Shown here piece after piece: positions 5,625 to 63,929 of a stretch of 64,000 nt of DNA. Within the stretch, counting starts at the first letter, position 1. Each line of letters opens with the position of its first letter. The position numbers were made by a program, and so were the translations under genes. The stretch is taken from positions 1,575,401 to 1,639,400 of the forward strand of contig JAWKIO010000005.1 in NCBI GenBank assembly GCA_041394265.1. Reading direction: 5' to 3'. Origin of the DNA: Acidimicrobiales bacterium. Lineage in GTDB: Bacteria > Actinomycetota > Acidimicrobiia > Acidimicrobiales > SZUA-35. The notes under the pieces were generated by a model, which was not told the origin of the DNA, searched no databases, and worked only from the letters and a program-made list of their open reading frames with translations.

Positions 5625-7252
5625 GCGAGATCGTCTCGAAGCTTGAACTTCTGGATCTTGCCCGAAGGCGTGACCGGCATGGCATCGACGATCAGCAGTC
5701 GCTCGGGCAGGTAGCTCTTGGTCATCTTGTGTTCGAGCAGGAACTCGACCATCTCGTCGAACGTGAGGCTGGTGTCGGGGCGCAACGTGACCACCGCGCA
5801 GGCCCGTTCGCCCAGACGTTCGTCGGGATAGGCGACGATCGCCACCTGCGCGACCGACGGATGCCGATACATGAGGTTCTCGATCTCGACGACCGGAACG
5901 TTCTCCCCACCCCGGATGATCACGTCTTTCGAGCGCCCGGTGATCCGGATGTAGCCGGCGTCGTCGAGCCGGGCGAGGTCGCCGGTGTCGAACCAGCCGT
6001 CGTCATCGGTGTTGTTGAGATGCGGACGCTTCAGGTAGCCGCCGAAGTTCGAACACCCGCGGACGAGGAGGCGCCCGGCCTCGCCGGTCGGCACACTTGC
6101 ACCGTCGTCATCGACCACCTTCAGTTCGACGCCCGGCAGTGGACAGCCGTCGGTTTCGACGGCTCGGCTGGGCGGATCGTCGGGCAGGGTCGTGGTGACC
6201 GCGCCGTTCTCGCTCATCCCCCAGGCCGAGATGATGTTGGCTCCGAGCGACTGCTGGGCCCGCTCCACCAGCGGCCCGGGAATCGGGGCGCCGGCGCAGA
6301 GGAACGTGCGCAGTGTCGGGACGGCATGGTCGGGGGCACTGACGTATTCGGTGAGGTCGGTGAGGAACGGGGTCGACGCCATGGTGAAGGTGACACCGTG
6401 CCCGTTGATGAGTGAACTCGCCGTTGCCGCGTCCCAGACATCGAGCAGGATCGCCGGGCATTGGAGCATCACGGGCATCACGAGTCCGTACATGAACCCC
6501 GTTTGGTGGGCCATCGGAGAGGCCATGAGGACGACGTCATCGCCGCCGAGTCCGAGACGCTCGGCGTAGGGAACGATGTTGGCCGTGATCGTGTTCGAGC
6601 TGTGCATCACGCCCTTGGGCTCGCCGGTGGTGCCCGAGGTGTAGATCAGCTGGGTCACCGCATCGGGACCGGGCCGGCTGGCGTGCAGGATCTCGTTGGC
6701 GTCAGCCTCGTCCTCCCACGGCGGGCCGGAGAGCAACGCCTCGAATCCACCCGGGCCGCTGTCGCCGACGGCAATGATGTGCTGAAGGCTCGGCACCTTC
6801 GAGCGAAGGCCGTCGTACATCGCAGCGAAGTCGAGACCGCGGAACGTCGAAGGGATGATCGCCGCCTGCGCCTCACCGTGGTTGAGCATGAACTCGAGTT
6901 CGCGCTCACGGAAGATGTGCATCAGTGGGTTCATCACGGCGCCGATGCGTACACACGCCAGGTAGGAGACGGTGAACTGCCACCAGTTGGGCAGCTGCAC
7001 GGCGACGACGTCGTCGGCCCGGATCCCAAGCCGATGCAAGCCGATCGCAACGCGGTCGGCCATTGTCGCCAACTCGGCGTAGGTGAAGGTCTGATCCTCA
7101 CCCGTCTCGAACTGACGAGCACAGACCGCCAGCCGGTCGGGCCCGGCTTCGACCGCTGCGTCGAGTGCGTCGTTCGCCGTGAGGTCTCGCCAGTGGCCGG
7201 CGGCAATCATGGCCGGCCGGCGCAGCACGAGGTTGTCGGCATCGAAGTGCAT
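5609..7252 (-). CDS. aliA: AMP-dependent acyl-CoA ligase, cyclohexanecarboxylate-CoA ligase (AliA)-like
   Basis: ORF 5609-7639 trimmed to ATG 7252 (MHFDADNLV...). Contains AMP-binding motif YTSGTTGEPKG and a QLPNWWQF motif. 547 aa. Confidence 0.7.
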   Translation of the reverse strand: MHFDADNLVLRRPAMIAAGHWRDLTANDALDAAVEAGPDRLAVCARQFETGEDQTFTYAELATMADRVAIGLHRLGIRADDVVAVQLPNWWQFTVSYLACVRIGAVMNPLMHIFRERELEFMLNHGEAQAAIIPSTFRGLDFAAMYDGLRSKVPSLQHIIAVGDSGPGGFEALLSGPPWEDEADANEILHASRPGPDAVTQLIYTSGTTGEPKGVMHSSNTITANIVPYAERLGLGGDDVVLMASPMAHQTGFMYGLVMPVMLQCPAILLDVWDAATASSLINGHGVTFTMASTPFLTDLTEYVSAPDHAVPTLRTFLCAGAPIPGPLVERAQQSLGANIISAWGMSENGAVTTTLPDDPPSRAVETDGCPLPGVELKVVDDDGASVPTGEAGRLLVRGCSNFGGYLKRPHLNNTDDDGWFDTGDLARLDDAGYIRITGRSKDVIIRGGENVPVVEIENLMYRHPSVAQVAIVAYPDERLGERACAVVTLRPDTSLTFDEMVEFLLEHKMTKSYLPERLLIVDAMPVTPSGKIQKFKLRDDLAQSNE

Positions 7253-60043: not shown

Positions 60044-60364
60044 CTACAGCTGCTGGATCTTGATCTCGATGTCGACACCCGCCGGCAGGTCGAGACGCTG
60101 GAGCGAGTCGACGGTCTTGGGGTTCGGCTCGAGGATGTCGATCAGACGCTTGTGGATCCGCATCTCGAAGTGCTCGCGGCTGTCTTTGTCCTTGTGCGGC
60201 GAACGGATGACACAGAACTTGTGCTTCTCAGTGGGCAGCGGGATGGGACCCCGGAACTCGGCGTTGGTACGAGCAACGGTCTCCACGATCTTCTTCGTGG
60301 ACTGATCGATCACCTCGTGGTCATAGGCCTTGAGGCGAATACGGATCTTCTGCTTGGCAGCCAT
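60044..60364 (-). CDS. rpsJ: 30S ribosomal protein S10
   Basis: 106 aa, [20 protein letters not shown]. Host-typical C-ending codons. Confidence 0.97.
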
Positions 60365-60375
60365 GGATGCAATCC

Positions 60376-61563
60376 CTACTTGATGATCTTGGTGACACGC
60401 CCGGCACCAACCGTACGCCCACCCTCACGAATCGCGAACCGCAAACCCTCATCCATCGCGATCGGATTGATCAACTCCACCGTCATCTCCGTGTTATCAC
60501 CCGGCATACACATCTCCGTACCCTCCGGCAACGTCACCGTCCCCGTGATATCCGTCGTACGGAAATAGAACTGCGGCCGATAATTCCCGAAGAACGGCTT
60601 ATGACGACCACCCTCCTCCTTCGACAACACATACACCTGCGCCTCAAAATCAGTATGCGGCGTAATCGAACCAGGCTTCGCCAACACCTGACCCCGCTGC
60701 ACCTGATCCTTCTCAATACCCCTCAACAACGCACCAACATTGTCACCAGCCTGCCCCGAATCCAACAACTTCCGGAACATCTCAACACCAGTACACGTCG
60801 TCTTCTGCGTCGGACGAATACCAACAATCTCGAGCGCATCGCCAACATTCACGACACCCTGCTCGATCTTCCCCGTCACCACCGTCCCACGACCAGTAAT
60901 CGAGAACACATCCTCAATCGGCATCAAGAACGGCTTATCCAAATCACGAGCCGGCTCCGGGATGTACTCATCCACCGCAGCCATCAACTCCATGATCTTG
61001 TCACCAGCAGCCTCGTCACCCTCCAACGCCTTCAACGCCGAAACATGCACCACCGGAACATCATCACCCGGGAACTCGTACTCAGAAAGAAGCTCACGAG
61101 CCTCCAACTCCACCAGCTCCAACAACTCCTCATCATCAACCATGTCAGCCTTGTTCAAAGCCACCACGATCGCAGGCACACCCACCTGACGAGCCAACAA
61201 CACATGCTCACGCGTCTGCGGCATCGGACCATCAGCAGCCGACACCACCAAAATCGCGCCATCCACCTGCGCCGCACCCGTAATCATGTTCTTGATGTAA
61301 TCCGCGTGACCCGGCATATCAACATGCGCGTAATGACGAGAATCCGTCTCATACTCCACATGCGACACATTGATCGTGATACCACGCTCACGCTCTTCAG
61401 GCGCCTTATCAATATTATCGAACGCCGTCGCCGTATTCCCAGCAACCCGATCCGACAACACCTTCGTAATCGCCGCCGTCAACGTCGTCTTCCCATGATC
61501 AATATGACCCATGGTCCCCACATTCACGTGAGGCTTATTACGCTCAAACTTTGCTTTTGCCAT
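60376..61563 (-). CDS. tuf: elongation factor Tu
   Basis: 395 aa, [28 protein letters not shown]... ending [14 protein letters not shown]. Actinobacterial-type protein sequence but anomalous codon usage. Confidence 0.98.
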
Positions 61564-61593
61564 TGGGGCGTGTTTCCTTTCAGATGGTTGGGG

Positions 61594-63681
61594 TCACTCG
61601 CCCCGGACTCGCTTCACGATTTCTTCTTGCACGTTGCCAGGCGTTGGCTGGTAACTATCGAACTGCATGGTGTAGCTCGCTCGACCCTGGGTCTTCGACC
61701 GCAGATCGTTCACGTAGCCGAACATCTCCGACAGCGGAACCTGGGCGGTGACGACCTTGTTGGTGCCACGGGCTTCCATCTGGCCGACTCGGCCGCGACG
61801 TGAGTTGAGGTCGCCGATCACGTCGCCCATGTAGTCCTCGGGGGTGACGACCTCGACGGCCATGATCGGCTCGAGGAGGATCGGCTGCGCCTTGCGGGCG
61901 GCCTCGCGGAACGCCATGGTGCCGGCGATCTTGAAGGCCATTTCCGAGGAGTCGACGTCGTGGAACTTGCCGTCGAGCAGGGTGACGCGCACGTCGACGG
62001 TCTGGAACCCGGCGAGGACGCCGTTGGTCATGGCCTCCTTGGCCCCGGCATCGACCGAGGGGATGTACTCACGGGGAACACGACCACCCGTGATCTTGTC
62101 GACGAATTCATAGCCACCACCGGGGCCGGTCGGCTCCAGTGCGATCTGCACCTCGGCGTACTGACCGGTACCGCCGGTCTGCTTCTTGTGGGTGTAGGTG
62201 TGGCTGTCGACCGTGCCGTTGATGGTCTCGCGGTAGGCGACCTGCGGCTTGCCGACACTGGCGTCGACCTTGAACTCGCGGAGCATGCGGTCGACCAAGA
62301 TGTCGAGGTGGAGCTCGCCCATGCCGGCGATGATGGTCTGACCGGTCTCTTCGTCGGTACGCACCGTGAAGGTCGGGTCTTCCTCGGCCAGGGCCATGAG
62401 GGCCTTGCCCATCTTCTCCTGGTCGGCCTTGGTCTTGGGCTCCACGGCCACGTGGATCACGGGATCGGGGAACTCGAGGGATTCGAGGATGATGGCGTGC
62501 GCCGGATCGGTGAGGGTGTCACCGGTGCGGACGTTCTTGACGCCGATCGCCGCCATGATGTCGCCGGTCATGGCGAACTCGCGGTCCTCCTGCTTGTTCG
62601 CGTGCATCTCGAGGAGGCGACCCATCCGCTCCTTCGAACCCGTGCGGGTGTTGAGCACCTGGCTGCCCTTCTCGAGCGTGCCGGAGTACACCCGGAAGTA
62701 GGTGAGCTTGCCGACGTTCGGCGCCGTCATGATCTTGAAGGCCAGAGCCGAGAACGGCTCCTTGTCGTCGGGAGCGCGCTCGGCGTCGTCGCCACCCTTG
62801 AGAAGGGTGCCGTGCACCGGTGGGAGATCGAGCGGTGACGGGAGGTAGTGCACCACGGCGTCGAGGAGAGGCTGGACACCCTTGTTCTTGAACGCCGAGC
62901 CGCACAGGATCGGGACGAGGATGTTGTTGATGCAGGCGTGGCGGATGCCGGCGTGCAGCTGCTCGACGGTGAGGTCCTCGTTCTCGAGGTAGGCCTCCAT
63001 CAGTTCCTCGCTGGTCGAGGCGATGGACTCGACCAGCTCGAGACGGTACTCGGCGGCCTTGTCGGCGTAGTCAGCAGGGATGTCGACGACGTCCCAGGTC
63101 GCGCCCAGATCCTCGTTGTGGTACATCAACGCCTTCATCTCGACCAGGTCGATGATGCCGGCGAAGTCGGACTCGATACCGATCGGCAGCTGGAGGATGG
63201 CGATGTCGGGGGTCAGACGTTCCTTGATGGTGTCGACCACGAAGTAGAAGTCGCCACCGGTGCGGTCGAGCTTGTTGACGAAGCACATGCGGGGAACGCC
63301 GTACTTGTCGGCCTGACGCCACACGGTCTCGGACTGTGGCTCCACGCCCGCAACACCGTCGAACACGGCGACGGCGCCGTCGAGGACGCGCAGCGAGCGC
63401 TCGACCTCGACCGTGAAGTCGACGTGGCCGGGGGTGTCGATGATGTTGATGCGGTGATCGTTCCAGAAGCAGGTGGTGGCAGCGGACGTGATGGTGATGC
63501 CACGCTCCTGTTCCTGCTCCATCCAGTCCATGGTCGCGCCACCATCGTGCACTTCACCGATCTTGTAGTTCTTGCCGGTGTAGTAGAGGATGCGCTCGGT
63601 GGTGGTGGTCTTGCCGGCATCGATGTGCGCCATGATGCCGATGTTGCGATATTTGTCGAGTGGTGTCGGTCGCGAAGACAT
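61594..63681 (-). CDS. fusA: elongation factor G
   Basis: ORF 61594-63897 trimmed to ATG 63681 ([26 protein letters not shown]). Confidence 0.97.
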
Positions 63682-63929
63682 GATGTTGGCCTCTTCGGCA
63701 GTGGTGGAGAAGGGGGAGCGTCCGGGGGCGGAGGATCCGTTACGGGCGGTCCGAGCGTTCACCCGGACGGGTGCCGAAGCGACGGATGCCTCGGCTGGTC
63801 GAACAATCGGCGGCGACGGTGTGTCGGCCCCGACGGGCCACTCGAGTCGGAGTGGGCGAGCATCGACCCCGCCCGAACGGCGCGGCGGATGCGACAACGA
63901 ACTGCTGGGTGCAGTCGCCGATAGGGCGA

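Follow-up and report, generated by a model that had tools for sequence, protein, structure and literature searches.

A C-depleted tuf gene in the str operon

Within a 64,000-nucleotide stretch of an Acidimicrobiales bacterium (GenBank assembly GCA_041394265.1, contig JAWKIO010000005.1; hereafter the window), the str operon carries a tuf gene, encoding elongation factor Tu (EF-Tu), whose codon usage departs from that of its neighbors. The gene lies between fusA and rpsJ, and its product is full length: in a profile search it matches TIGR00485 with 733 bits (cutoff, 522) over residues 1 to 395, its homologues contain the domains GTP_EFTU, D2, and D3 in this order (PF00009, PF03144, and PF03143), and the EF-Tu of an Acidimicrobiales metagenome-assembled genome (MAG), encoded on a 5.08-Mb contig, is 100% identical to it. 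Comparison loci are labeled with L-numbers (L001, L083, etc.), and C3, G3, T3, and A3 are the fractions of codons ending in the respective base.

Third positions of the 396 codons comprise 214 G, 135 T, 43 C, and 4 A (G3, 0.54; T3, 0.34; C3, 0.11), against a mean C3 of 0.47 (standard deviation, 0.06) and a T3 of 0.12 ± 0.03 in the 56 other genes of the window, which places tuf at z = −5.6 for C3 and z = +6.7 for T3. Leucine is encoded by TTG at 23 of 27 positions and threonine by ACG at 25 of 30, with GAT in 24 of 28 aspartate, CAT in 9 of 11 histidine, AAT in 9 of 12 asparagine, GGT in 25 of 37 glycine, and CGT in 15 of 21 arginine codons. C-ending codons are avoided unevenly, TTC being kept in 10 of 12 phenylalanine and ATC in 12 of 24 isoleucine codons. 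The codons preferred by the ribosomal protein genes are not shared by tuf. On an adaptation index with these genes, fusA, and groEL as the reference, tuf scores 0.39, the lowest of the 57 window genes (mean, 0.59), and fusA (0.71) and groEL (0.79) are among the highest, in agreement with the claim of an initial annotation that tuf avoids the host-preferred codons.

The gene also stands out in base composition, which is atypical for the host. Its GC content is 0.55 (0.52 to 0.58 along the gene) compared with 0.62 to 0.69 in the flanks, and a plus-strand GC skew of approximately −0.4 occurs inside tuf only; the gene-wide skew on the coding strand is 0.37. On the minus strand, the maximal segment of G-over-C and keto-over-amino excess in the whole window (60396 to 61527) falls within the open reading frame (ORF). 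The codon table and ORF coordinates reproduce the codon counts, positions, and spacers of the initial annotation, and the GC and skew values bear out the island that it described. Its borders are indeed sharp, but they enclose the translated body of tuf and not all of 60365 to 61593 as proposed, since the 30-nucleotide (nt) leader before the ATG is C-rich and the last nine codons are of the host type (Table 1).

Table 1. Coordinates of tuf, its compartments, and adjoining features in the window
Feature	Coordinates	Strand	Remarks
tuf (EF-Tu) coding sequence, str-operon copy	60376..61563	−	395 amino acids + stop; ORF, TIGR00485 match
C-depleted, G+T-enriched tuf body, codons 1–386	60406..61563	−	C3 ~0.10 over body
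3′ tail of tuf, last 9 sense codons + stop, host-type C-ending codons	60376..60405	−	GCC GGG CGT GTC ACC AAG ATC ATC AAG TAG
fusA-tuf spacer, 30 nt, A+C-rich (13 C, 4 G), ribosome-binding site GAAAGGAAA	61564..61593	−	Sequence reading
tuf-rpsJ spacer, 11 nt	60365..60375	−	No room for a terminator
fusA (EF-G), normal host usage (C3 0.55, G3 0.31, T3 0.09)	61594..63897	−	True start probably near 63675
rpsJ (S10), near-normal usage (C3 0.41–0.45, G3 0.39–0.40)	60044..60364	−	
Antisense ORF, 478 codons, by-product of composition	60367..61803	+	Exact reverse-complement codon frame of tuf

The spacer on the rpsJ side is too short to hold a terminator, and cotranscription of tuf and rpsJ is therefore probable. 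No promoter-like or terminator-like site isolating tuf was found in a scan of the window, the fusA-tuf spacer having no minus-strand promoter-like site, and searches of the window for Rfam families, tRNAs, promoters, and terminators gave nothing relevant. There are no signs of mobility either, as tuf is packed tightly between its two neighbors and the window contains no tRNA gene.

The 478-codon antisense ORF listed by the initial annotation is present and extends 240 nt into the end of fusA. We rejected it as a gene: it has no NCBIfam match, and its frame is open because A-ending sense codons, which would place stops on the opposite strand, are nearly absent from tuf (A3, ~0.01).

Several minor observations concern the surroundings of the gene. 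Leaders and 3′ flanks of tuf are A+C-rich, in sharp contrast to the G+T-rich ORF, as in ccccaaccatctgaaaggaaacacgcccca in the window and ccctcaacaaaccaaaacaaaaaag after the stop of L083; further examples are L001 5948 to 6000 and the sequence downstream of 6191 in L083/L084 and L085/L086. Part of these flanks falls within the block common to both copies of tuf in genomes that have two. The listed fusA ORF is 767 amino acids long and the EF-G model match begins at residue 75, so that the upstream extension is probably an open frame and not coding. Finally, rpsJ deviates slightly from the other ribosomal protein genes (C3 of 0.41 to 0.45 and G3 of 0.39 to 0.42, versus approximately 0.52 and 0.32) in the window, at 7200 to 7520 of L002, and in L032, which may be noise, the gene being small.

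The closest relative

The closest relative, from another assembly, has two tuf genes on a 1.3-Mb contig. One of them (L002) stands in the order rpsL-rpsG-fusA-tuf-rpsJ with short spacers, the same as in the window; the other (L001) follows tRNA-Thr(GGT) and tRNA-Met and precedes an extracytoplasmic function (ECF) sigma factor gene, tRNA-Trp, secE, nusG, and rplKAJL-rpoB. C3 is 0.12 in both copies and 0.43 to 0.60 in all 18 neighbor genes. The two copies differ at 8 of 1,188 nt, and each is approximately 5% from the window tuf (95% DNA identity), while EF-G and S10 of the window are 94 to 98% identical to those of this relative.

Compared with this relative, the window tuf has a synonymous divergence (dS) of 0.22, and ten neighboring genes have values of 0.28 to 0.78. 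By this measure, the synonymous sites of tuf are more tightly held than those of its neighbors. Hypermutation of tuf was considered and rejected because its dS lies below that of the neighbors, at about half their level.

Spread of the trait among Acidimicrobiia

Comparison loci were sampled from species-representative genomes, metagenomes, and exact-protein look-ups; the nearest relatives were taken from the look-ups, as the GTDB and metagenome matches listed lacked them. Among these loci, Acidimicrobiia repeatedly show a loss of C3 restricted to tuf, and the values form a graded series from 0.44 to 0.01. It runs from L097 (0.44) through the Microthrixaceae L007 and L003 (0.36 and 0.26), the Ilumatobacteraceae L016 and L012 (0.22 and 0.18), L100 (0.19), L006 and L085 (both 0.14), the window (0.11), “Ca. 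Microthrix” L113 (0.09), and L031 and L087 (both 0.08) to L032 and L083/L084 (0.01), where L083 and L084 retain just 2 or 3 C-ending codons per 396. In every depleted case, the neighbors (fusA, rpsG, rpsJ, rplC, or others) are normal. A normal tuf C3 of 0.49 to 0.62 is found in the Acidimicrobiia L004, L008, L011, L018, L019, L048, L090, and L093 and in all other high-GC Actinomycetota sampled. Genes at an early stage of the series mostly exchange C3 for G3 and CTS for TTG, and T3 increases later as twofold codons flip.

Depleted and normal lineages are intermixed in rough neighbor-joining trees of EF-Tu and EF-G. The window clade stands beside the normal-usage L004, L048, and L011 in the EF-G tree, and the sister pairs L032+L006 and L012+L016 are recovered in both trees. 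The window EF-Tu has 84% amino acid identity to depleted relatives and likewise 84% to normal ones. All close relatives examined carry the trait, which does not show the patchiness or incongruence of horizontal transfer. Judged from these trees and loci, C avoidance is old or recurrent, and it is maintained; the trait is an inherited, tuf-specific one of the lineage and not a recent import or an assembly error. The initial annotation had reasoned that a lineage trait would be shared both by tuf of close relatives and by other highly expressed genes; the relatives do share the pattern, and the other highly expressed genes do not. Of the explanations that it offered, the data bear out a gene-specific mutational or selective regime.

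In a literature search we found no description of a tuf codon-usage or GC-skew anomaly in Actinobacteria. What is new here is the extreme, strand-specific, and ORF-confined enrichment in G+T; a tufA/tufB arrangement with concerted evolution is already known.

Copy number and gene conversion

Every strongly depleted genome that could be examined has two tuf copies, in a sample that is small and phylogenetically nonindependent. Besides the relative with 98% identity, three further depleted genomes have a second copy, the pairs being L001/L002, L083/L084, L085/L086, and L087/L088, each on one contig, co-oriented, and 22 to 119 kb apart. Within pairs, the copies differ at 8, 6, 0, and 0 nt, respectively. 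Exact identity ends 8 to 18 nt before the ATG and 2 to 48 nt after the stop in the latter three pairs, and the flanks of L001/L002 diverge within a few nucleotides of the ORF. Such near-identity of paralogues (0 to 8 nt), compared with the ~5% between the window and its nearest relative, is what concerted evolution produces. In the relatives, the second copy lies in the order tRNA-Tyr, tRNA-Thr(GGT), tRNA-Met, tuf, tRNA-Trp, secE, nusG. Depleted copies in the secE-nusG context were also recovered as L031, L099, and L101, with the upstream tRNA genes confirmed in L031 and L101 (L099 begins at a contig end). L100 and “Ca. Microthrix” L113 are each represented by two protein accessions from a single assembly. 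A single place encoding EF-Tu was seen in three normal-usage genomes, represented by a 3.67-Mb contig, a 715-kb contig, and the complete 3.57-Mb chromosome of “Ca. Poriferisocius.”

The window tuf, in its str-operon position, is probably one copy of a duplicated tuf, a state observed in the relatives and inferred for this genome, and the second copy would be expected beyond the right end of the window. Gene conversion, which the initial annotation had proposed from a donor with different codon usage, thus enters in another form: not from an outside donor but between two resident copies, the second of which the relatives keep identical by conversion.

In the L097/L178/L181 lineage, the two copies (L178 4001 to 5185 and L181 3 to 1187) are identical except for a 100-nt patch (tuf nt 438 to 537) with 10 synonymous differences, and 8 of these 10 sites carry G or T in the str copy and C in the tRNA-linked one. 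Among the loci compared, none proved to be a source for the patch of L181, the best match being 86%. Over all differences between copies, 11 sites have the str copy more depleted and 4 the tRNA-linked copy, too few to decide polarity between copies.

Spacers and gene calls around tuf vary as well. The fusA-tuf spacer is 150 to 180 nt long in the L019 group (L090, L093, and L019), with room for a tuf promoter, and L090 and L093 have a single tuf place. In the depleted two-copy lineages compared (window, L002, L084, and L087), it is mostly 15 to 80 nt, and it is also short in the normal L004, L011, and L048, so that the link is loose. The EF-Tu clusters of Ilumatobacter contain L33 fragments, which points to tuf-rpmG adjacency; at 90% identity, the clusters of Ilumatobacter (L012) and Microthrixaceae (L007) also contain short L33 and S10 proteins. 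These likely stem from fused or overlapping gene calls at the tuf-rpmG and tuf-rpsJ junctions and could mislead automated annotation.

Anatomy of the depletion

The depletion starts at the start codon and is approximately uniform over the first 90% of the gene, at 0.16 to 0.29 of the normal C3, and it is gone in the last 5 to 20 codons in 16 of 16 depleted sequences. In some lineages (L006, L032, L083, L085, L087, L103, and L113) the 3′ tail goes beyond host-like usage to an A+C skew opposite to that of the body, with A-ending codons clustered in the tail and almost absent from the rest of the gene. L006, for example, has 7 A-ending codons in the last 20 versus 4 in the 371-codon body, and 6 of 16 depleted genes, compared with none of 13 normal ones, have AAA as the final lysine codon. 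Folding of the 3′ tail revealed no conserved hairpin.

At the far end of the series, the effect reaches the protein. The tuf of L083/L032 contains 138 C versus 530 G over the whole gene, and the gene-wide GC skew outside the window reaches up to 0.59. EF-Tu of L083/L032 has gained valine (66, normally ~40), glycine (50, normally 36), arginine (32, normally 21), and leucine and has lost lysine (9, normally ~20), isoleucine (15, normally 24), threonine (23, normally 33), asparagine, and methionine, and EF-G of the same genomes is without such a shift. At sites with at least 80% conservation in 19 other lineages, codon positions 1 and 2 of the extreme lineage show 22 changes from A/C to G/T (A>G, 12; C>T, 4; A>T, 4; C>G, 2) versus 1 reverse (G>A), and the control lineages are balanced. 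Read from these substitutions, the pressure is compositional: it runs from A/C to G/T on the coding strand, affects every codon position, and has enough strength to shift a highly constrained protein. Since such a force moves the protein itself, codon selection at the level of tRNAs would be ruled out, and saturating adaptive explanations fit poorly.

Minimization of mRNA structure was considered as a cause and appears weak: local folding energy is just 15 to 30% weaker than in normal tuf genes, rpsJ is less structured still, and the window tuf is not less structured than its own synonymous-codon permutations (−29.9 versus −28.5; standard deviation, 0.8).

A proposed pressure on the conversion unit

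As the best reading of these data, tentative and given somewhat less than an even chance, we propose a strand-specific, G/T-ward pressure on the unit of gene conversion, probably exerted by biased conversion. In the relatives, conversion keeps the co-oriented copies identical over little more or less than the ORF, and the coding strand of this unit of approximately 1.2 kb has shifted to G and T, away from C and in extreme lineages from A too, with the shift beginning at the 5′ edge of the unit and ending 5 to 20 codons before the stop. The pressure would be linked to conversion itself, through a strand-specific bias in which copy serves as donor. The island between fusA and rpsJ is sharp because the unique flanking genes keep the C-rich usage of the host. 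Such a pressure would account for the island within the operon, for a depletion that begins at the 5′ limit of homology, for the link to duplication, and for the range of intensities, and also for the drift in amino acids, the low dS, and the absence of skew in Escherichia coli.

A possible molecular basis, which in this specific form we hold to be unlikely, is strand-asymmetric biased conversion arising from the mismatch specificity of NucS together with invasion by the coding strand, so that the G/T-richer copy is the preferred donor. NucS prefers G-T, G-G, and T-T mismatches and not A-C, and it lowers homeologous recombination approximately 10-fold at 90% identity (PMC8228993); it is present in Ilumatobacter coccineus, of the class Acidimicrobiia (PMC5290159). 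Conversion confined to the gene is known to shape the evolution of tuf duplicates (Paulsson et al. 2017, PMC5485169). NucS/EndoMS recognizes only mismatches of the types G-T, G-G, and T-T. If, in addition, invasion is mostly by the 3′ end of the coding strand (the nascent leading strand), then G or T on the invader opposite a partner with the C/A allele would give a heteroduplex that is recognized and aborted, and the reciprocal mismatches, of A and C only, would pass. The G/T-richer copy would resist overwriting and serve as the donor, so that G/T alleles would come to occupy both copies, with codon-level selection slowing the flips at phenylalanine and isoleucine codons. As the invading 3′ end must be homologous, the last tens of nucleotides would rarely be part of the heteroduplex, which matches the exempt 3′ tail. 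The outcome would be a ratchet of the duplicated unit toward G+T on one strand, opposed by codon adaptation and, where it is extreme, by the purifying selection that acts on EF-Tu, which ranks among the most conserved proteins known.

Several points weigh against a conversion-linked pressure. The bias is proposed by reasoning about recombination intermediates, on which its direction rests. In the window clade, the start codon and the 5′ edge of the conversion unit coincide, and translation-linked explanations fit equally well. Two copies are not sufficient, as the L097/L178/L181 lineage has two and a C3 of 0.42 to 0.44, and L105, in the tRNA/secE context, has a C3 of 0.55. For the exact protein of L007 (C3, 0.36) there is one place only, and this lineage may be single-copy with partial depletion. 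The lineages in which copies were counted are few and related to one another. Lastly, the milder tuf-specific G3 excess of L054 and L158 (described below) occurs in organisms expected to use MutSL and needs a different or more general cause.

Alternative explanations

The main rival, somewhat unlikely in our estimate, is selection against cytidines in tuf mRNA, acting via RNase E or Rho, with conversion only keeping the copies alike. With RNase E, the C-poor body would be a long-lived segment excised at the C-rich spacers from the fusA-tuf-rpsJ and tRNA-tuf transcripts, yielding more EF-Tu than operon neighbors; with Rho, which loads on C-rich, G-poor naked RNA, a G-rich and C-poor tuf would escape premature termination when translation lags. 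The avoided base is indeed C on the RNA-sense strand, the spacers are C-rich, and the synonymous sites of tuf are more constrained than those of its neighbors. Mycobacterial RNase E cuts 5′ of C at >90% of mapped sites and limits the decay of approximately 89% of mRNAs (PMC10641625), and Rho-dependent termination within Salmonella tufB regulates that gene (Brandis et al. 2019, PMC6735719). An exempt tail near the stop would be expected under Rho, as loading there can terminate only downstream, and E. coli, whose RNase E has no C preference, has a tufB without skew. However, C3 is 0.54 to 0.59 in single-tuf Actinobacteria (among them Nocardia and Gordonia, kin of the species in which the RNase E preference was shown) and in single-copy Acidimicrobiia, and approximately 140 to 200 C remain at codon positions 1 and 2. 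The extreme lineage also loses A and has a shifted protein, which is hard to explain by evasion of Rho and irrelevant to an enzyme keyed to C. The last codons to go, TTC and ATC, contain the UC dinucleotides bound by Rho, the C-rich unstructured leader and C-rich tail would be targets too, and where copies differ it is the str copy and not the tRNA-linked one that is more depleted (11 sites versus 4).

Transcription-associated mutation, in which the non-template strand of the most transcribed gene is deaminated (C to T and A to G), appears improbable. A keto excess on the coding strand is its classical signature, and A>G and C>T dominate the substitutions of the extreme lineage. Yet the skew is bounded by the start codon and ends before the stop codon, and it does not cover the transcription unit: the leaders, 3′ flanks, and cotranscribed fusA and rpsJ are unskewed or oppositely skewed, no promoter or terminator isolates tuf, and the 11- and 30-nt spacers imply a shared transcript. 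Moreover, early-stage lineages gain G3 and not T3, and transversions contribute.

To horizontal replacement we attach an equally low probability. A C-poor foreign allele would have recombined within the conserved ORF, leaving a host-type 3′ end, and would have spread to the second copy. This would suit an atypical composition bounded inside the ORF with a host-like end, the 100-nt patch with its 10 differing sites in L178/L181, and the rough EF-Tu tree, which puts the window clade elsewhere than the EF-G tree does. Nevertheless, no donor is known, even the tuf with a C3 of 0.01 being an island in its own genome of 62 to 64% GC, and the patch has no close source among the loci compared. The foreign donor suggested by the initial annotation is not supported, given a native acidimicrobiial protein equally distant from depleted and normal lineages, the interspersion of these lineages, and the pairs L032+L006 and L012+L016 that are congruent in both trees; amelioration, too, would not hold dS at half that of the neighbors.

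Translational selection for a special codon set felt only by the most abundant protein is highly improbable. The effect does not extend beyond the translated region, bacteria often have GGT and CGT among their optimal codons, and phenylalanine and isoleucine codons resist change, but GAT, CAT, and AAT are read via wobble by the same G34 tRNAs as GAC, CAC, and AAC, the ribosomal protein genes, fusA, and groEL prefer the opposite codons, amino acid replacements toward G/T-rich codons go beyond the choice of tRNA, and the last 5 to 20 codons are exempt. An assembly or binning chimera, as the initial annotation had also considered, has a negligible chance: a sharp compositional change at a highly conserved gene is where one would be expected, but the same gene order, spacers, and codon pattern recur in several independent long-read assemblies with contigs of 1.3 to 3.5 Mb, the closest of them 95% identical in tuf DNA and 94 to 98% identical to the window in flanking proteins.

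Comparison with known systems

The tufA/tufB duplicates of Salmonella and E. coli, reported by Abdulkarim and Hughes in 1996, are said to evolve in concert by gene conversion. The Acidimicrobiia resemble them in having two near-identical tuf genes with identity bounded by the gene, one at the end of the str operon and the other after tRNA genes, including tRNA-Thr, and before secE-nusG-rplKAJL-rpoBC. Unlike in that system, the copies are co-oriented direct repeats 22 to 119 kb apart, with a G+T excess of the coding strand that reaches the protein. E. coli tufB, which has the same tRNA/secE context, a converting partner, and MutSL repair, is of ordinary composition (C3, 0.32; G3, 0.24; GC skew, 0.03).

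GC-biased gene conversion is a nonadaptive process that shifts composition where heteroduplex forms and can fix slightly deleterious changes. In its classical form it favors G and C equally on both strands, whereas here C is lost and T gained, in a strand-specific opposition of keto and amino bases. Replication and transcription produce strand skews as well, with a G+T excess on leading or non-template strands. The tuf skew has the same sign, on the strand expected for a co-oriented and highly expressed gene, but it is far larger (0.37 in the window and up to 0.59), occupies one ORF, and is absent from cotranscribed neighbors. An enterococcal tufB, described by Ke and colleagues in 2000, was reportedly acquired horizontally; it is alike in being a tuf sequence mismatched to its genome, and it differs from the present case, where the protein is native, there is no foreign signal, and both copies and whole clades are affected.

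EF-Tu is normally a textbook case of a codon-adapted, slowly evolving gene. Here, tuf is the worst-adapted gene of its neighborhood, and related lineages have lost essentially all C-ending codons and changed approximately a tenth of the amino acid composition with the operon neighbors untouched. If a conversion-linked bias is the cause, translational selection and protein constraint can both yield to concerted evolution, inferences of transfer or chimerism from composition can mislead at duplicated genes, and the mismatch specificity of a repair system can leave a strand-specific signature. Should strand-asymmetric conversion through NucS prove true, it would be an undescribed kind of intragenomic drive and would show a new route by which a clade's repair system influences the composition of genes. 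Should selection at the RNA level be the cause instead, these lineages would form a natural experiment on cytidine content versus mRNA decay or Rho termination in Actinomycetota. Either way, the many lineages at stages from C3 0.44 to 0.01 provide a clean, testable system. As tuf is a phylogenetic and barcoding marker, C-depleted sequences will mislead nucleotide-level trees.

Milder tuf-specific G3 excess outside Actinomycetota

Other groups show a milder anomaly of tuf. In Chloracidobacterium aggregatum (Acidobacteriota; L158 3501 to 4688), tuf has a G3 of 0.67, a C3 of 0.18, a GC3 (G- plus C-ending codons) of 0.86, and a gene GC of 0.63, in flanking DNA of 0.52 GC and among str/S10 operon neighbors mostly with a GC3 of 0.43 to 0.6. 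Its EF-Tu has several NCBI accessions, and there may be two copies. L151, L144, and L130 have EF-Tu termini like those of L158 and a G3-rich tuf, with lower G3 in the neighboring ORFs of L151 and L144. Beta- and Gammaproteobacteria normally carry tufA and tufB. In a betaproteobacterium (L054 3938 to 5191), tuf has a C3 of 0.26 and a G3 of 0.61, compared with approximately 0.40 for each in its neighbors, and L055 and L043, which together with L054 represent Beta- and Gammaproteobacteria, show a milder tuf-specific excess of G3 over C3. The G3 excess of L054 and L158 suggests a broader tendency.

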